Positions 4,451-12,836 of a stretch of DNA of 64,000 nucleotides are shown one piece after another. Within the stretch, counting starts at the first letter, position 1. The number at the start of each line of letters is the position of its first letter. The notes beneath the pieces are model-generated. The model was not told the origin of the DNA and ran no database searches. It saw nothing but the letters and a program-made list of their open reading frames with translations. The position numbers were made by a program, and so were the translations under genes. This DNA is from Nitrososphaerota archaeon (GTDB taxonomy: Archaea > Thermoproteota > Nitrososphaeria_A > Caldarchaeales > Caldarchaeaceae): the NCBI GenBank assembly GCA_041641305.1, contig JBEPYN010000002.1, positions 544,001 through 608,000 of the forward strand, in the 5' to 3' direction.

Positions 4451-4699
4451 ATGAACGTGAGAATAGTATACTGTGTTCCATGCGGCCATCTACCTAATGC
4501 TCTCGAGCTCGCTAAAGACCTTCTCAGCCGATACGGGCAAAGGCTCAACAAGAAATTCTCAGTCACTCTCGACACAAGCGACGGAGGAACCTTCGAAGTC
4601 TACATAGAAGGGGAGAAAATCTTCTCACGCCACGAGGCGCGGCGGTTCCCAACACCTGACGAAATCGCGGGGCAGATTGAAAAGAGGCTTAATGGTTGA
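4451..4699 (+). CDS. Rdx family (SelW/SelT/SelH-like) thioredoxin-fold protein
   Basis: YCVPCGH CxxC, GGTFEV, IFSR, RFP motifs. Confidence 0.85.
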   Translation: MNVRIVYCVPCGHLPNALELAKDLLSRYGQRLNKKFSVTLDTSDGGTFEVYIEGEKIFSRHEARRFPTPDEIAGQIEKRLNG

Positions 4700-4974
4700 A
4701 CCTTCGCCTAATAGTCTTCGTTGTCGCATGGTCTGCAGCGACCATAGCAGCCCTCACAATCGGACAGCTCTATGAATGGCCAGACAATGTACACATCCGC
4801 TATGGCATACCTCTGACCTATGCTGTTCACACCGTCGTCACGATATTGGGAGCTGCTGACCACTGGAGTGTGGACACAAACATTCTCGCCTTTGACTTGG
4901 CGATATGGATGGCAGGCCTCGTGACCGGAGTAGCTCTGCTATCGAGGCAGAAGACAAGAGATGGACATACCTAG
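4696..4974 (+). CDS. Small membrane hypothetical protein
   Basis: Two hydrophobic segments with a YGIPL loop; overlaps the Rdx stop. Confidence 0.55.
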   Translation: MNLRLIVFVVAWSAATIAALTIGQLYEWPDNVHIRYGIPLTYAVHTVVTILGAADHWSVDTNILAFDLAIWMAGLVTGVALLSRQKTRDGHT

Positions 4975-4986
4975 CGTAGTGGTAGG

Positions 4987-5562
4987 TCATTTTACTATTT
5001 TGAGACGCGCTGGTGCTGGCGACCTCTCAGGCAATAGCCTTATTCCTTCGTGACGTAGAAGCCAAGCCTTAACGTTCTCGTCACCCCCGTAGCGTCCGAT
5101 TGAGCCGTCGGATTTCACTACTCGGTGGCAAGGTATAATTATTGGAACAGGGTTGCGGGCGACCGCGTTTCCAACAGCTCTGTACGCTTTTGGACTGCCC
5201 ACAGAAGCAGCCACGTCTCTATAGCTCCGCGTCTCCCCAAAAGGGATGGAGGCGACAACGTTCAACACCTTCCCCGCGAAACCAGAGACACGGAGGTCAA
5301 TCGGTACATTAAAGACCCGCCTTACACCCTCGAAATACTCCCCAAGCTGTCTCTTAACCAAACCATTAACCTCTCCAGCGCCGTCGCCAACTATGAAACC
5401 CTCTCTAACGAGGCCCTTAACCAAAGCATTCAAACCCACACCCCACACCACCCTAAAAACACCACGCCTCGTAGAAGCAAAACAAACCAAACCAACAGGC
5501 GACATCAAACAACCCACCGAAACAACCTCTCCCACAAAAACCACATAAACAAAACCAACCAA
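4987..5562 (-). CDS. ogt: Methylated-DNA--protein-cysteine methyltransferase
   Basis: IPFGETRSY, AYRAVGNA, NPVPIIIPCHRVV active site; start uncertain. Confidence 0.92.
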   Translation of the reverse strand: MVGFVYVVFVGEVVSVGCLMSPVGLVCFASTRRGVFRVVWGVGLNALVKGLVREGFIVGDGAGEVNGLVKRQLGEYFEGVRRVFNVPIDLRVSGFAGKVLNVVASIPFGETRSYRDVAASVGSPKAYRAVGNAVARNPVPIIIPCHRVVKSDGSIGRYGGDENVKAWLLRHEGIRLLPERSPAPARLKIVK

Positions 5563-5757
5563 TATGCTTTAACCCAGCTCCATTTTTCCAAACAGATGCG
5601 TCGAAAACATGACTAAATTTTCCCGGTCCATTAACAAAATGAACCATAAGCATGCACAAAATAATTGAATTCGCGAGATTGTGGCTGGGCCGCTTGTTAG
5701 ATGTTGCGGTTGAAACATTCTTATTAAACATCGTATACAACATATTGGGGTAACCCC

Positions 5758-6558
5758 ATGTCTTCAACCCCTTTAACCGACCTAATTTCTCTGAAAGGTA
5801 GAAAAGCGTTGGTTACTGGGGCTGCTTCAGGGATAGGGCGGTCGGTCTCTGAGAGGTTTGCAGAAGCCGGCGCCAGCCTAGTTCTTGTGGACATCAACGA
5901 GCCCGCCCTAACGAGCGTCGCCTCATTTATTAGAGATGGATATGGGGTTGAGGTTGAGGCGAAAAAAGTAGACCTGTCCAAGAAGAGGGAGATAGACGAG
6001 CTATGGTCCGGCTTGAAGGAGCGGGCTCCAGACATTCTGGTTAATAACGCGGGCATATACGAGTTCCGAGACTTCTTAGAAGTTGATGAGGATTTCCTTG
6101 AGAGAACCCTCGATGTGAACTTGAAGTCCGCGTTTTACATGTGCCAGCACATGTTTAGGACGCGTGGTGATAGGGGTGGTGTGATAGTAAACGTCAGCTC
6201 CATCGAGGCCGTCCTCCATCTCGTCAAAGGCCTGACCCACTACGGCGTGAGCAAAATTGGCCTCGTCGCACTGACCAGGGCTCTGGCACGTGAATATGGA
6301 GGAAAGGGCTTCAGGGTCAACGCCGTTATGCCCGGAGGAATTCATACACCCGGCACAGATAAGGTCAGGAACGAAGCCCTCAAAAGACTCCAGCTCGGAT
6401 TCTTCATCACAGGTATGAATTTCATATCCAGAATACCCTTGAAAAGGCTGGGAGAACCAGACGAAGTGGCAAGGGCTATACTTTTCCTAGCCTCAGACCT
6501 ATCAAGCTACGTGAACGGTGCAGTACTAGTCGTAGACGGCGGATACCTAACAGACTGA
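5758..6558 (+). CDS. SDR family NAD(P)-dependent oxidoreductase
   Basis: TGAASGIG, NNAG, YGVSK (YxxxK), PG, VVDGG. Confidence 0.92.
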   Translation: MSSTPLTDLISLKGRKALVTGAASGIGRSVSERFAEAGASLVLVDINEPALTSVASFIRDGYGVEVEAKKVDLSKKREIDELWSGLKERAPDILVNNAGIYEFRDFLEVDEDFLERTLDVNLKSAFYMCQHMFRTRGDRGGVIVNVSSIEAVLHLVKGLTHYGVSKIGLVALTRALAREYGGKGFRVNAVMPGGIHTPGTDKVRNEALKRLQLGFFITGMNFISRIPLKRLGEPDEVARAILFLASDLSSYVNGAVLVVDGGYLTD

Positions 6559-6573
6559 GAACCTCTCGACCAT

Positions 6574-6647
6574 GGGCCGATGTATCAGTCTGGGAAAAAC
6601 TAGGCTTCGCACACCAGAGATATGAGGGTTCAAACCCCTTCCCACCA
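6574..6647 (+). pseudogene. Decayed tRNA-like element (closest to tRNA-Ala CGC)
   Basis: 74 nt: GGGCCGA-TG-TATC-AGTCTGGGA...TTCGCAC...GAGGG-TTCAAAC-CCCTT-CCCACCA. T-arm and loops look like tRNA; acceptor, D and anticodon stems mostly do not pair. Confidence 0.5.
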
Positions 6648-7029
6648 GAAAAATATTCTTATGTGTTTTTTCGGCATGGTTTAGTGTTTGAGTATCTTGT
6701 TTGCATCTAATGCGTGCGATAGAAGAAATATGCCGCAAGGAGAAAATTTCAGAGGAAATTATCACGTCTCTAACTCGGAGTTTCCGTGATGAATACTAGT
6801 GCCATCGGCATCTTGGACCAACCATCCCTCCTAGACAACCCTTCAAAGCTATTGTTGACAGTGCATGTAGTGTGTGCGTATTGGGTGGTTGTGCTTAGGT
6901 CTTACACTCCGCCTAATTCCTTAACGGCACAACAAAGGCCAAAGGTATACCCAAAAACTCACAAAAATCTATTGAGAGCTAAAGGATTTATGTCTGTGCT
7001 TCTATTGTAACTTAAATGCGGTGTGGTAG

Positions 7030-8907
7030 ATGGGGGTTATCGTCTGCGTCGGTAGAAAAGGTAATGTAAAGAAATCTATTATCGATGGAGTTCATTTGAG
7101 TGATTTAAGGATTGCTGATGAAGCGCTAGTTAGAGAATTAAGTAGCAAGCATCCAGACGGGTTTGTCCGGATGTGGGGGTTCAAGGAGAAAGTGCGTTAT
7201 CTTTGGAGACGCGCCCGTTTGAGCAAATATGCCCTATTTACTTATCACCCCCGGCAAGCATTGTATGCAGGTAAAATATCCCTTGTTTATCCTTTTAATG
7301 AAGACGATGAAAAACAGCTAGAAGTCAGTACCATAATATCCACCGATGTTTGGGGGAGAGACCTTGATGGACAGACTTGGAAGTATCTCGTATTTCTTAG
7401 TGATGTGAGAGAGGTTTTACTGGGTGTAGAGACTTTGAATGATTTGACGGGGTATAAGCTACATGTCTTTCGAAACTCTTTTTACATTACCGACAACAAA
7501 GCTATGAGACTTGAACAGTTTCTAAATCGCTACTTAGAGGAATCCGTCGAACCTTCTCGTAAAATTACGCCTTTTCAGTTAGCGCGGGAGCGACTTCGCT
7601 CACTGTTTGGAATAATGACTCCCAAGTCAGAAGACTCCTCGTTTTTACCGTCTTCAGCCACGCCATATGAGCGGATGAGAAATTTACGAATCCCTGCTAA
7701 AGAGGAATCGATAGGCACACCGTCCCGAATGATTCGAGACATCGCCGACGCAGAGACATTAAGTGAGGACGCGGAGGTTAAGAGATTAGATGAAGAGTTC
7801 ATCAACTATTTGGATTCGTTGCTAGTGGACCGACTCGAGGAAACAATAAAATTCGGGAAATGGTTATCCGTGTCAACCCTAACTCAATACTATTTTGATT
7901 TGTTCGGGCCAGAAATATTTTTCGATCACATGCTTGCTATTAGTCAGCAATATTCAATATGCGAAACAGAAATTGTGAGCGAGGAGGGCTCATCTAAAAT
8001 GACAACCGGTTTTAATTTGGCACTTTTCGGTGAGCCTGGAACTGGAAAGTCATTTACCTCTAGAGACATGATTCTCGGTAGTGAAGATAAAGGCATACCA
8101 CCCCACGGAATCCCGGGCCGTAACAGATACTGTGGAGGCATGACTCCCGCAAAGTTCATAGAGGTCGGTCAAGCATATGAAAACAAAAAATTCAATTTCA
8201 TAGTAACAGAGTTTAACGACTGGTTCAAATACAGGGGAATGGTGGAGCCGCTTAAGTTAGCCATGGAAAGGGGTTCTATACGGTATGAGACTAAGAGATA
8301 TACTGTTGGTCCGTACCGCTTCACCTCCTTCTTTAGCGTGAATTATAATACGCGAGTTTATGACAAAGGATACGGAGTCACTGTGTCGGACCCGAATTTT
8401 AACGCTATAGAAGACAGGATGTTATGCAGGTTACATAGATTGACCAAAGCAAAATATCAAGAATTGGCAAAAAGTCAGCGAGAAATGATGTTGGGCAAAA
8501 TGCAATCTAAGATGAAAATGTTTGCGCCCCGGCTTAGAGATCATTTGACGTTATGTTACGCTATTCAGACACGGAATACTAAAGTAAATAAAACCTTCTC
8601 GGAAAAGAGGGTCTTGCTGACTAAAAACTTGTTTGATATGCTTGATAAGGCCAGAGATTTAGTTTTGGAAAACCTGAGAACAGGAATAGTCCCTTTCTCG
8701 GCGAGGCTAGAAAGCAGAGCTGTTCAATTGGCTTCTGCCATGTCGCTGATGAACTATTTTAATAGGGAGCACTATATTATATCGGTAGATAATATTGCTG
8801 CTAAAATGGCGACTAGATTTTTTGTAGAAGAAGCATGGATCAGGTCAGGCGAGACATTTCCGATCCGTGAAGTCATCAGAAAACTTGACCTAGAATTTAT
8901 AGACTAA
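7030..8907 (+). CDS. YTH/EVE(PUA)-like N-terminal domain fused to an MCM-like AAA+ ATPase
   Basis: N-term NVKKSIIDGV..MWG..DVWG..TWKYLVFL..LNDLTGY pattern; C-term Walker A GEPGTGKS, Walker B-like FIVTEFND, LKLAME, IEDR; AT-rich. Confidence 0.6.
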   Translation: MGVIVCVGRKGNVKKSIIDGVHLSDLRIADEALVRELSSKHPDGFVRMWGFKEKVRYLWRRARLSKYALFTYHPRQALYAGKISLVYPFNEDDEKQLEVSTIISTDVWGRDLDGQTWKYLVFLSDVREVLLGVETLNDLTGYKLHVFRNSFYITDNKAMRLEQFLNRYLEESVEPSRKITPFQLARERLRSLFGIMTPKSEDSSFLPSSATPYERMRNLRIPAKEESIGTPSRMIRDIADAETLSEDAEVKRLDEEFINYLDSLLVDRLEETIKFGKWLSVSTLTQYYFDLFGPEIFFDHMLAISQQYSICETEIVSEEGSSKMTTGFNLALFGEPGTGKSFTSRDMILGSEDKGIPPHGIPGRNRYCGGMTPAKFIEVGQAYENKKFNFIVTEFNDWFKYRGMVEPLKLAMERGSIRYETKRYTVGPYRFTSFFSVNYNTRVYDKGYGVTVSDPNFNAIEDRMLCRLHRLTKAKYQELAKSQREMMLGKMQSKMKMFAPRLRDHLTLCYAIQTRNTKVNKTFSEKRVLLTKNLFDMLDKARDLVLENLRTGIVPFSARLESRAVQLASAMSLMNYFNREHYIISVDNIAAKMATRFFVEEAWIRSGETFPIREVIRKLDLEFID

Positions 8908-9149
8908 GAGACAAAGATAAAAGCTCCGGCTGGAAAACGGTCGAAGGACCCGAGAACCGGAAAACCATTCAAGACCAAGAAACGACTAAACCATGAGCAA
9001 GAAGTCTAACGGTTTTTTATGAAAGTTGAGTTCACAATAGAAACGAAACCACAGCCTCTCGAAGACATGACGCCGCCGCAAGCCAACACTTTCTCCATTC
9101 TTCCTTAGTCGTACAGAACCTCTAGGCTCTATCACAAAGTAATTAAATG

Positions 9150-9244
9150 TGCCCCGGGGCGGACTTGAACCGCCGACATCCCGGTCTTCAGCCGGGCGAT
9201 AGAGGAAACTTTTGTTTCTCTCTCCCAGTCTGAGCTACCGGGGC
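9150..9244 (-). tRNA. tRNA-Phe(GAA) with a 21-nt intron at non-canonical position 24/25 (intron 9199-9219)
   Basis: Reverse complement GCCCCGG TA GCTC AGACTGGGA GAG[AGAAACAAAAGTTTCCTCTAT]C G CCCGG CTGAAGA CCGGG ATGTC GGCGG TTCAAGT CCGCC CCGGGGC A; full cloverleaf once the intron is removed. Confidence 0.95.
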
Positions 9245-9318
9245 GCGGTATGAGTTTTTCATGGCTTGATTTAAGGTGTTTGCTGTTTTGTGTTTTTATG
9301 TAGGTTGTTTGGTTTAGG

Positions 9319-9858
9319 GTGGGGTTGGTGTCTAAGCAGCCTGTGGCGGCGGGGAGGTTTGTTAAAGGCTATGTTTCGGGTTTTGTGGCTAGGGTTGTTT
9401 CCGATGGTATTGTTTACTTCTTTACTTTGTCTACGCTTGAGGGTGAGGATGTGGTTTTCAGGATGCGGCAGCCCCCTGAATGGGTGTATACAGGCACGCC
9501 GGTGGAGGGGCTGTTGGTGAAGGCTGACGACGTTTACCAGATTCAGGACCTTTCTCAAGCGGCTGAGCTCGCTCAGCCACGTGTCGTCGAGGTCGACCGA
9601 TGCGATGTAACCTACGTAGGCACGGGCTCTGCGAAGAAACCTGTTGTCACTGGGTCAGCGGGTAGGATGGTGATTTCCGCGCCGGCGATAAGCATGGGTG
9701 TGGCGAGAAAAGCTGAGAAAATAGGATACACAAAATGTGTGTTGCATGTGGCTGACTTGGCGACGGGGGCGAGAATAGTGGCGGTCCAAACACCTCAAGA
9801 ACACAGACGAGACACCTCCATGAAGAAAGTGATAACTATGCTGAGTCATGGCGATTAG
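9319..9858 (+). CDS. Hypothetical protein, beta-rich (possible OB folds)
   Basis: Long ORF ending 3 nt before topA; alternating beta-strand pattern. Confidence 0.55.
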   Translation: MGLVSKQPVAAGRFVKGYVSGFVARVVSDGIVYFFTLSTLEGEDVVFRMRQPPEWVYTGTPVEGLLVKADDVYQIQDLSQAAELAQPRVVEVDRCDVTYVGTGSAKKPVVTGSAGRMVISAPAISMGVARKAEKIGYTKCVLHVADLATGARIVAVQTPQEHRRDTSMKKVITMLSHGD

Positions 9859-9861
9859 TAG

Positions 9862-11664
9862 ATGACTTTGGACAAAGGTGCGATGGGTGGAGAGAAGCTG
9901 ATTATAGTGGCCGAGAAGGCCAGCGTTGCTAGGGCGATAAAGGCGGTGGTCGCCGCAGCCAAGGCCAACGCCGTGGTCTCATCCGTTAGAGGCCACATGA
10001 TGGAGGCTGATCTGCCGGATGGCTACGAATGGGGTGCAAAGCATCCTCTAGAGATTATCAAGCTGAGGAAAGTTGTTGACAAAATTTCGGACAACCGTGT
10101 GTTTGAGCAGCTGGTCAAAGTTTTCAGCGGGGGAGGCTTGCTCGTTATAGCGACGGACAACGACTCCGAGGGAGAGCTCATCGGCTATGAAATTCTACAG
10201 GTTTACCGCCGTGTCAGGGGCGGCGAACCCGTTGTCTTCAGGATGCGTTTTAACTCTGTTGACCGCCGTGAGCTCTTCGCAAGCTTACGGAACCTCGAGA
10301 AAGGGCTTAACATGCGCTGGGTTGAGAAGGCGCGTTTCCGCCAAATCTTCGACTTGGTCACAGGAGCCGCATTCACGCGGTTGCTTACGCTGTCTACTCG
10401 AAGGCTTGCACCTGTCAGGGTGATTAGCTGGGGCTCATGCCAAACACCAACTCTAAACTTCGTCGTCGAAAGAGAGAAAGAAATACAGCGGTTCAAACCG
10501 CAAAAATACTGGGTTCTAGAAGCCACTCTGAGAACTGCAGGCGGAGAAGAGTTCAAGGCTGCGACGCAGCAGATATGGAGCAGGGAGAAGGCGGAGCAGG
10601 CTTTTGAGAAGGCTCGGAAAGCTGGTGAGGCTGTTGTCACAGCCTACAGCAAGGCTGAGAAAACCCTGCCAAGGCCGCTTCCGATGAGGACCGACGACGT
10701 TCTCAGGGATTTGACGAGGATAACGGGGGTTTCGGCTAACAGGCTGCTGGCCATGATGGAGGAGCTTTACGCCGAGGGCTACATCAGCTATCCACGCACC
10801 GACACCAACAGGTATAGACGCGGCTTCGACTTCCAAACACCTCTCAACGCCGTAACGGCCGCAGATGCCCTGCGGGACGCGAAACCAGATAAATCAGAAC
10901 CCGTTCCAAGAAACGGGTCAAGAGACGATGGAGCTCATCCGCCCATTTACCCTGTGGCCACCTACCGCGGCACCGGTGTTTTAATGCAAATATGGGAATA
11001 CATAGCCCGGCGCTTCTACGCCAACGCCTTCTTCGACGACGCTGTTCAGTCAACCTCAAGGGCCGAAATAGACATAGATGAGTTAACATTTTCAGCCGAG
11101 GGCTCGACGACCACAAAACAAGGTTACCTACAGGTCTTCACATATTTCCGGCCCCGCGATAAGCCACTTCCGGAGCTCATGGTGGGTGAAAAGCTTCGGA
11201 TAATCGACGTGGCTATTCGGGAGGATGAGACAAAGCCTCCGCCACGCCTGACCGAGGCCGACCTCCTGAAACTGATGGAGAAAAACGGTATAGGAACCGA
11301 TGCAACACGCGCATCCTTCCCTCAGCTGATAACTGAGCGCAACTACGCCGTGAGGGTTGGCAGGGTTTTCAAGCCGACGCCTCTGGGAATGGCGTTGATC
11401 GAGGCTTTAGCCGAGGCAGATACACGGCTTGTAACACCTGAGACGAGGCGGCTTGTCGAAGACTATATGGCGAAAATCGAGCGCGGGGAAACAGGGTTTG
11501 AAGAAAGCCTTGAGCAAAGCCTCCGACTCTACGAGGAGCTTCTCAAGAGATGCAGCGATAAAATAGATGAGATCAGCAGTAGCCTCGCCCAACACATCAA
11601 ACCCATGGCTCGAAAGAAAGCGGCTAAAAAGAAACATGATGGATTCACAAACCTTAATAAATAA
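9862..11664 (+). CDS. topA: Type IA DNA topoisomerase (archaeal TopA/Topo III), no C-terminal Zn fingers
   Basis: Toprim AEKAS, ATDNDSEGELIG, QTPTL, active-site GYISYPRTD, AHPPIYP, GIGTDATRA. Confidence 0.95.
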   Translation: MTLDKGAMGGEKLIIVAEKASVARAIKAVVAAAKANAVVSSVRGHMMEADLPDGYEWGAKHPLEIIKLRKVVDKISDNRVFEQLVKVFSGGGLLVIATDNDSEGELIGYEILQVYRRVRGGEPVVFRMRFNSVDRRELFASLRNLEKGLNMRWVEKARFRQIFDLVTGAAFTRLLTLSTRRLAPVRVISWGSCQTPTLNFVVEREKEIQRFKPQKYWVLEATLRTAGGEEFKAATQQIWSREKAEQAFEKARKAGEAVVTAYSKAEKTLPRPLPMRTDDVLRDLTRITGVSANRLLAMMEELYAEGYISYPRTDTNRYRRGFDFQTPLNAVTAADALRDAKPDKSEPVPRNGSRDDGAHPPIYPVATYRGTGVLMQIWEYIARRFYANAFFDDAVQSTSRAEIDIDELTFSAEGSTTTKQGYLQVFTYFRPRDKPLPELMVGEKLRIIDVAIREDETKPPPRLTEADLLKLMEKNGIGTDATRASFPQLITERNYAVRVGRVFKPTPLGMALIEALAEADTRLVTPETRRLVEDYMAKIERGETGFEESLEQSLRLYEELLKRCSDKIDEISSSLAQHIKPMARKKAAKKKHDGFTNLNK

Positions 11665-11687
11665 ATAATGTTGAGACGTGCTGAGAG

Positions 11688-12836
11688 ATGGTTGTGCTGT
11701 TTGCCGCGTTTCTGAACCCGTCGTCAGGTGGAGACAATATCCTATCCCTATTGCTGTCGCTTGTATGGTTTGCTTTTTTGATGATTTTCTTCCTTTATCC
11801 ATCGTTTGGTCAGCGTATGCAGCTCTCTTACATGCTTCGAGACCTTGAGAGGAAGTTGAACAAGCTCAAGCTCATCAAGGACGAGATTAACCAGATAACT
11901 GTTGAGACAATTAAGCGGGTTGGTAAGCCTGAGAAAGACCCCGCGCCCGACATAAACAGGCTGAGCGAGTTCTTCGTAATCCAGCCCGAATCAATGGACC
12001 CCTATGGCTTGGTCTACAAACTGGAGCATATTCTCGAGACAGGGGAATCGGTGTATGAGGAGGAGGTGGCTAAGCTGGCGCCCCATGCGACAGAGCATCA
12101 GGTCAAGTCTTTGACAAACCTTGTAGAAGTTCTCCGCGGGATCAACACAATATACCGCGTCGTCCGCCACTACTACCTGCTGGGTAAAAAGACCGCCAAC
12201 ATCTACATGGTTCTACAGATACAGATGATTCTGCCGCAGATAATAGAGATAGCCGAGTCCTATAGGCAGGCGGCTGTCGCCTTCAGCAAGGGGCAGCCGA
12301 TAGGCGACGGTGTTGGCCCGCTTGTTGCCGCGAAGCTTGTGGATGGTTCGGAGAAAGATAGGTATGAGATTGCTAAGGACACGGTTGTTCAGGAGATTGA
12401 GCTGGATAACAGGAGGGTCTATGTTGTCAGGGCCATTGGGCCGGGTGGAACGGTGGGAAGACCCGGGGAAGGCGTCAAACAGCTTGTTGAGAGGCTCGGT
12501 GAAAACCCGAAGCTCATTATAACCATCGATGCGGCCCTCAAGCTTGAGGGGGAGGAGACGGGTAAAATCGCCGAAGGAGTGGGTGTAGCGATAGGGGGGC
12601 CTGGTGTTGACAAGTATAAGATAGAGGAGCTGGCGAAGAGCCGCGGCATTCCGCTATATGCCTTCGTCATCTTCCAATCCATCACAGAGGCCATAACACC
12701 CATGCGTGAATCCATCGCCAAAGCTGCTGACCAAGTGCTTGAGAAAGTTAAGCAGCTGATTCTGGAAAAAGTGAAGAGCGGCGAGTCCGTGATAGTCGCA
12801 GGCATCGGTAACACCATCGGGGTGGGCTTGGGATGA
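11688..12836 (+). CDS. DUF1512 family membrane-anchored protein
   Basis: N-terminal TM, PESMDPYG, PIGDGVGPLVA, IDAALKLEGE, GIGNTIGVG. Confidence 0.8.
   Translation: MVVLFAAFLNPSSGGDNILSLLLSLVWFAFLMIFFLYPSFGQRMQLSYMLRDLERKLNKLKLIKDEINQITVETIKRVGKPEKDPAPDINRLSEFFVIQPESMDPYGLVYKLEHILETGESVYEEEVAKLAPHATEHQVKSLTNLVEVLRGINTIYRVVRHYYLLGKKTANIYMVLQIQMILPQIIEIAESYRQAAVAFSKGQPIGDGVGPLVAAKLVDGSEKDRYEIAKDTVVQEIELDNRRVYVVRAIGPGGTVGRPGEGVKQLVERLGENPKLIITIDAALKLEGEETGKIAEGVGVAIGGPGVDKYKIEELAKSRGIPLYAFVIFQSITEAITPMRESIAKAADQVLEKVKQLILEKVKSGESVIVAGIGNTIGVGLG

Follow-up and report, generated by a model that had tools for sequence, protein, structure and literature searches.

What is a predicted reader of modified bases doing at the front of an MCM-like AAA+ ATPase, and does the resulting protein belong to antiviral defence? 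These are the questions raised by one reading frame of a Nitrososphaerota archaeon, in which the initial annotation, prepared from the letters of the sequence, had seen an acquired, modification-dependent DNA translocase. In the window, that is, the whole 64,000-nucleotide stretch of contig that was analysed, the 625-aa frame at 7030-8907 (+) contains every motif quoted in that annotation, and W49, W108 and W117, as well as K340 of Walker A and T393-E394 of Walker B, fall where they had been placed. The frame occupies a 2.5-kb island that adjoins the 3' end of a tRNA-Phe gene and has no other substantial gene; the layout is as follows:

6573..6647, + strand: decayed copy resembling tRNA-Ala(CGC), bounding the island on the left (alignment to the tRNA-Ala(cgc) of the genome)
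6635..9140, no strand: acquired island, 2.5 kb, 42.4% GC (collinearity break with congener G009, GC content, repeat scan)
7030..8907, + strand: fusion gene P0001, 625 aa (reading of the frame and translation)
9149..9244, - strand: tRNA-Phe(GAA), its D-arm carrying an intron-like insertion, bounding the island on the right (ARAGORN, Rfam alignment)

The gene is AT-richer than its surroundings, as had been noticed from the sequence: its GC content is 42.1% versus 51.4-51.5% in both flanks, and only 0.7% of genome windows of the same size have a GC content as low. The complete genome of the congener G009 is collinear with the window at 4452-6634 (90% identity) and 9141-11982 (86%), and between these segments it has about 75 bp in place of the 2,506 bp of the window, that is, an empty site. 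The right break lies 8 nt from the end of the tRNA-Phe gene and the left break, at 6634, in the T-arm of the tRNA-Ala-like copy. Because a profile of the ATPase found no match among 74 other genomes of the order, gain of the gene by horizontal acquisition is favoured over loss in G009. The empty site and the absence of the motor from all 74 relatives thus agree with the acquisition that had been proposed and contradict a vertically inherited core gene, the outcome that the initial annotation had named as speaking against it.

The island carries little else. No integrase was found in its list of reading frames, no att-like or terminal repeat by the repeat scan, no primase or Cdc6 gene, no remnant of a type IIG restriction-modification (R-M) gene or of the N-terminal domain usual for this ATPase, and, this being a single-gene island, no PglZ, BrxC and PglX operon. 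The reading frames of the window show no McrC or nuclease gene adjoining the fusion, as had been stated, and McrC is absent also from the 99%-complete genome as a whole (PF10117 and two McrC-like queries). A promoter scan gave results at chance level with a model that is of the bacterial type, the host being archaeal.

The two boundary tRNAs call for a comment of their own. The label tRNA-Lys, given to 9149-9244 by ARAGORN, would leave no tRNA-Phe called in the genome; we rejected it because the Rfam alignment yields a GAA anticodon loop and a D-arm insertion, which identify an intron-bearing tRNA-Phe. The position of the gene just past the 3' end of tRNA-Phe is therefore borne out: this end lies 242 nt beyond the stop codon of the fusion, in convergent orientation. 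The tRNA-Ala(cgc)-like copy at 6573-6647, undetected by ARAGORN and Rfam, aligns with a score of 69 versus a maximum of 59 for shuffled sequences. It stands tail to tail with tRNA-Phe and is present also in G009, where it has decayed differently.

The protein divides completely into two domains and a linker, with no nuclease domain among them:

[quoted passage not shown]
7543..7764, + strand: linker, aa 172-245, the last ~40 aa of which align loosely with the end of the usual N-terminal region of the ATPase family
7765..8892, + strand: MCM-fold AAA+ module of an unnamed archaeal family, aa 246-621 (homologues, model, structure alignment)

For the N-terminal domain, a profile of the reader family matched the N-domain of T. 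gammatolerans McrB (PDB 6p0f) with an E-value of 2.8e-7. The structural model (pLDDT 94.9) retrieved 6p0g as the top Foldseek match (E 7.5e-7), and VIA-align superimposed the two with Z 14.1 and rmsd 2.6 over 154 aa, the next best match reaching Z 9.9; the structural matches that follow are YTH, EVE and ASCH domains. The domain is thus a YTH-like reader of the TgMcrB type, as the initial annotation had suggested, and a fold foreign to the PUA superfamily, which would have spoken against that suggestion, is not what was found. W49, W108 and W117 align with W53, W115 and F121 of the Thermococcus protein, which we take to be the cage residues of TgMcrB-N, and are kept in 43 of 44, 44 of 44 and 40 of 43 rows of the alignment, respectively; W59 is conserved too. 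The three residues thereby form a putative aromatic cage. According to two reports, TgMcrB-N binds m6A-containing double- and single-stranded DNA better than unmodified or 5mC DNA, and RNA poorly (PMC7544203, PMC7680126). By homology, the reader of the fusion would recognise a flipped adenine methylated at N6 in DNA.

A search of 1.8 billion proteins with the reader returned 59 matches, a few of them spurious. The genuine relatives either stand alone or are fused to AAA_5 (McrB-type) ATPases, HNH, NOV_C or PD-(D/E)xK-looking domains; fusions of YTH-like readers to McrB-type ATPases and nucleases have been reported previously (PMC7641849). In the congener G005, a roughly 40%-identical copy of the reader heads an McrB gene with an internal stop, which suggests that the reader circulates in the defence gene pool of the lineage; in G022 the copy is in pieces. 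The G005 gene (L088:3237-6100), broken by a single TAA, lies in an island of 39-40% GC and is followed by a 368-aa gene that occupies the McrC position and has no library match.

The C-terminal module carries the following elements:

8029..8052, + strand: Walker A GEPGTGKS, with K340 invariant across the family (motif and family alignment)
8197..8211, + strand: variant Walker B FIVTE, with the first acid replaced by Thr or Pro throughout the family and the catalytic E394 invariant (alignment)
8275..8319, + strand: predicted pre-sensor-1 beta-hairpin, aa 416-430, its tip formed by K422/R423 (model strands 172-176 and 181-186; position relative to the host MCM)
8416..8418, + strand: R463, candidate arginine finger, invariant (alignment; role judged from the MCM motif order)
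8704..8706, + strand: R559, candidate sensor-2 arginine, invariant (alignment; corresponds to the region of the TARQ motif in the host MCM)

The model of this module (pLDDT 89.4) settles the choice between the MCM and McrB clades in favour of the former, as the initial annotation had leaned: the best 11 of 48,161 chains are all MCM, aligned with Z 17-19.7 and rmsd of about 4 over 281-331 aa at 9-13% identity, and the TM-scores to MCM clusters are 0.67-0.70. The non-MCM matches are BchI (Z 13.7), BrxL (13.6), RavA (12.9) and ComM (12.4). The McrB signatures DE[IL]NR and [ML]NxxD, present in the YTH-McrB relatives, are absent from the fusion protein, which has VNYNT at the position of MNxxDRS, the signature that, according to a published account, replaces sensor 1 in McrB (PMC7680126). 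Membership in the McrB family was accordingly rejected on the missing signatures, the MCM fold and the lack of McrC. BrxL membership was rejected as well: there was no BrxL match in Pfam, PADLOC or NCBIfam and the profile comparison gave a probability of 1%, the genuine BrxL of this genome scoring E 5e-107.

Single-protein searches of Pfam, PADLOC, NCBIfam, PHROGs and PDB sequences yielded nothing significant (the best PADLOC match is a weak one to mad8, E 0.014), and the ATPase profile matched no solved structure among PDB sequences. Neither the query nor 40 family members matched Pfam MCM (PF00493); the host encodes a separate canonical MCM, and the genome scan with PF00493 pointed to three other loci. 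The OB-fold and zinc-finger collar is missing, the N-terminus being the YTH-like domain. K422/R423 at the predicted hairpin tip are a candidate DNA contact, and the MCM helix-2-insert hairpin appears to be replaced by a helix: the segment is modelled as a helix and lacks ~8 aa relative to the host MCM, the sequence alignment being unreliable there. Invariant across the family are K340, E394, N438, N440, R463 and R559, and the fusion departs from the family at only 5 of 146 near-invariant columns, always by conservative changes. The alignment shows the Thr/Pro-Glu Walker B throughout the family, so that it is not a sign of decay.

The family to which the motor belongs comprises at least 1,351 homologues, nearly all unnamed and the top ones 52-69% identical, from Bathyarchaeia, Korarchaeota, Thermofilaceae, Nitrosocaldus and others, and has no model in Pfam, NCBIfam, PADLOC or PHROGs. 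Among the best 119 homologues, 111 share one other N-terminal region of ~200 aa and two have an AN1-type zinc finger; BLASTP with one protein (P0009) extends back to aa 207 of the fusion. None of 174 ATPase loci carries a YTH reader. No second reader-motor fusion came from word-index protein searches, which missed known relatives such as P0125, or from a metagenome scan with the reader, among the matches listed. By these comparisons, the fusion is a domain swap in which the usual N-domain of the ATPase has given way to a YTH-like reader. This usual domain shows weak winged-helix hints that are not significant (E about 1).

The motor is not specific to defence, since further branches of the family occupy stable housekeeping contexts. 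In Bathyarchaeia it comes behind a conserved coiled-coil gene (47 loci), and in a Nitrosocaldus-like group (L050, L057, L061, L062, L069, L080 and L082) the ATPase comes after a 130-aa gene in a conserved cluster that also holds a ParB-like gene and an ATPase of the HerA/TraG type. A 1,095-aa member from a Dehalococcoidales bin (L039:344-3628) has a long C-terminal extension without library match.

The neighbourhoods of the closest relatives provide a link to defence stronger than had been supposed. The query belongs to a clade supported at 99/100, with no resolved place inside it, and in 23 of the 30 non-redundant loci of this clade (at least 62% identity; L150, the R-M label of which rests on an unverified reference, is not counted among the 23) the motor gene lies beside a 1,040-aa type IIG R-M gene. 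The IIG gene is directly upstream on the same strand in 18 loci, mostly within 20 nt, and convergent in 5; four of the seven loci without it stop at contig ends, and the members from Thermofilum and Nitrosocaldus lack such a neighbour. The partner scores as REase_MTase_IIG (PADLOC PDLC03630, E 1e-92 to 1e-100) and keeps PD-(D/E)xK-like and NPPW motifs. Furthermore, distances among the ATPases co-vary with those among the IIG proteins (rho 0.64; 0 of 2000 permutations), which shows co-inheritance and is not proof of interaction. In the reciprocal comparison, only one of 12 genomes with the IIG family, the one with 57% identity, has the ATPase within 1.5 kb, so the enzyme does not need the ATPase and, given also the Thermofilum and Nitrosocaldus ATPases, the link is strong and not obligatory.

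Genes for EVE, DndB/DpdB, McrBC, Mrr, AbiE, PCNA and integrases recur near family loci, and one defence island contains IIG, ATPase and McrBC within 9 kb. More distant ATPases pair with two other large methyltransferase families: AN1-type zinc-finger variants stand behind a different, 1,100-aa IIG gene (L046, L047, L187), and others behind a 900-940-aa PglXI-like methyltransferase (L024, L033, L161, L165). The unit of the 1,040-aa IIG enzyme and the MCM-fold ATPase occurs in many hot-spring and sediment archaea (L002, L007-L009, L011, L096-L100, L102, L106, L109-L148) and is absent from the defence catalogues and papers searched; this parent pair is probably a better experimental target than the fusion. 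In L096, for instance, the IIG gene spans 4869-7994 and the ATPase gene 8001-9749.

The host genome itself encodes several N6-adenine methyltransferase-like genes, so that an m6A reader would meet self DNA too. At C2:419308-421623 lies the gene of a protein that belongs to the partner IIG family (51% identity) and lacks the nuclease region; in the encompassing region (L188:7309-10361; C2:419308-422360; 34% GC) this N-terminally shortened protein gene overlaps a type II restriction enzyme gene. Elsewhere (L189:5002-10074; C2:206001-211073), a 1,209-aa Eco57I-like IIG gene stands 4 nt ahead of the gene for a 481-aa BrxL without protease, and no other BREX genes were recognised among the reading frames neighbouring this pair. 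Over the whole genome (G000), the ratio of observed to expected counts is 0.27 for GATC and about 0.5 for GTAC and CTAG.

As the closest relatives of the motor keep company with restriction enzymes, the gene is probably a variation on antiviral defence, and we tentatively read it as an acquired derivative of a module of defence type, so far undescribed in archaea, that consists of a type IIG R-M enzyme and an MCM-fold ATPase. For its function we tentatively prefer, with a probability of roughly 45%, a methyl-directed, ATP-dependent DNA-binding ring derived from such a module. The ATPase would have lost its R-M partner and exchanged its usual N-domain for a YTH-like reader from the McrB/type IV restriction pool. 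Binding of the reader to its flipped, N6-methylated adenine would concentrate subunits, whereupon the MCM-fold module, like BrxL, could assemble on DNA into a ring in an ATP-dependent manner. This ring might clamp or track along methyl-marked DNA and obstruct replication of the invader or, alternatively, hand the marked DNA to a nuclease encoded elsewhere, the protein having none of its own. From binding onward we infer these steps, and the same applies to the term 'modification-dependent translocase' of the initial annotation. The methyl-directed ring is supported by both folds, by the retained residues of the cage and the ATPase, by the coupling of the parent clade to R-M genes and by the acquisition. 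Against it stand the singleton status of the fusion, the lack of an effector on the island and of McrC in the genome, the host methyltransferases that would expose an m6A reader to self DNA, the apparently missing helix-2-insert hairpin, the lack of demonstrated helicase activity in BrxL and the housekeeping contexts of other family branches. The bolder combination, in which the IIG-ATPase pair is an undescribed archaeal antivirus system and the fusion is its working one-gene, nuclease-free version, with an m6A reader replacing the methylase partner and the ring loaded on methyl-marked DNA to block replication, we regard as unlikely.

The singleton status, the missing effector and the adenine methyltransferase-like genes of the host keep two other readings alive. 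In one, the gene is a recent in-frame chimera that arose by recombination of neighbouring YTH-McrB and IIG-linked ATPase genes, on a remnant island and without a selected function. The possible parents do sit side by side in defence islands, as in the 9-kb example above, and the single occurrence of the fusion, an island devoid of partner, integrase and att repeat, and the frequent breakage of close reader copies in the order (the G005 and G022 copies described above) all fit this origin. However, the frame is open over 625 codons, all motif residues are kept and the 70-aa linker is in frame; moreover, although its end branch measures 0.35 substitutions per site, the fusion deviates at no more than the 5 of 146 conserved columns mentioned above, each time conservatively. 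This conservation may nevertheless predate the fusion. A functionless chimera seems to us somewhat improbable and is nonetheless the main competitor of the preferred reading. In the other reading, which we consider distinctly unlikely, the reader targets the m6A of the host itself, with methyltransferases acting in trans, and the protein either assists R-M or BREX-like cassettes resident in the genome or surveys self DNA; in the parent module, the ATPase would work at the sites of its IIG partner. The nuclease-less IIG protein and the IIG/short BrxL pair could supply such cassettes, and GATC is strongly avoided in the genome, but the cassettes are 130-340 kb away and have no linkage to the island, and the truncated IIG gene has a type II nuclease neighbour of its own. 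The swap could even preserve function if the usual N-terminus were a winged helix, since some prokaryotic winged helices read m6A (PMC11037411), but the hints to this effect are, as mentioned, not significant.

The possibility that the motor serves a mobile element as helicase in replication or partition, its gene being stranded cargo and the reader steering it to modified origins, draws on a 34%-identical homologue on an IMG/VR virus contig (L107:5605-7041), 3.7 kb from a PCNA-like gene, on one IIG-ATPase locus with two PCNA genes and an integrase, and on a fold common to viral and SCCmec/SaPI replication helicases. This viral match is, however, the single one in 2.9 million contigs, neither primase, Cdc6 nor integrase accompanies the gene, the OB-fold or zinc-finger collar is lacking, and the host has its canonical MCM, which makes this origin very improbable. 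Least credible of all is an assembly artefact joining two genes. The fusion is indeed seen on one contig only, but this contig measures 703 kb in an assembly of 4 contigs (1.66 Mb, 99% complete) and its flanks are collinear with the congener; the frame is single and open, its halves have equally low GC (41.7% and 41.1%), and neither half occurs elsewhere in the genome.

In the literature searched, in which coverage of subscription journals was thin, we found no description of an MCM-fold ATPase with a type IIG enzyme, of the ATPase family or of a YTH-MCM fusion. The reader-motor fusion, the family and the IIG coupling thus appear to be undescribed; YTH readers on McrB and nucleases have already been published (PMC7641849, PMC11037411). 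Together with the IIG-linked clade, the fusion gives a first clue to the function of a conserved archaeal family of MCM-fold ATPases that has no name and numbers over 1,300 proteins. If it is active, the restriction logic of reader plus motor would have arisen a second time, on a helicase-like motor distinct from McrB, and the protein would serve as a single-chain model for the way in which BrxL and other MCM-like ATPases of defence work on DNA. Should the gene prove to be a dead chimera, it would still be a record of domains being exchanged within defence islands of archaea, and attention would shift to the two-gene parent module.

Among characterized systems, T. gammatolerans McrB (6P0F/6P0G; Hosford et al. 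2020, as cited in PMC7544203 and PMC7680126) shares with the fusion a homologous reader, the three aromatic positions and the order of reader, linker and AAA+ module, but the motor of the fusion has the MCM fold, lacks the signature motif and has no McrC beside it or in the genome. Archaeal and eukaryotic MCM (PF00493) are the best structural match, with Walker A, catalytic Glu, pre-sensor-1 hairpin, candidate arginine finger and sensor 2 in like order; in contrast to them, the motor shows 9-13% identity, no Pfam match, a Thr-Glu Walker B and no OB/zinc collar, and is not vertically inherited here. With type IV enzymes that carry PUA-superfamily readers (YTH/EVE-HNH, YTH-PD-(D/E)xK, YTH-NTPase, CoCoNuTs; PMC7641849, PMC11037411, PMC11090510), it has in common the pool of readers and their modular swapping; unlike these enzymes it has no nuclease domain or linked subunit, and it is a modification reader by homology. 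Type IIG R-M enzymes (Eco57I-like), normally single-gene systems, are the usual neighbours of the ATPase clade, and this partner is absent from the island. BrxL of BREX types 1 and 4 is an MCM-like, ATP-dependent dsDNA-binding ring that is needed for phage restriction and has no demonstrated helicase activity (PMC10164562). The fusion differs from it in lacking a Lon-like domain and nearby PglZ and BrxC, in falling outside the BrxL family and in having a YTH reader. The two resemble each other in the MCM-like AAA+ module (Z 13.6) and BrxL, too, works in defence with an N6-adenine methyltransferase, and the IIG-ATPase pair of the parent clade mirrors the pair of IIG enzyme and short BrxL in the same genome.
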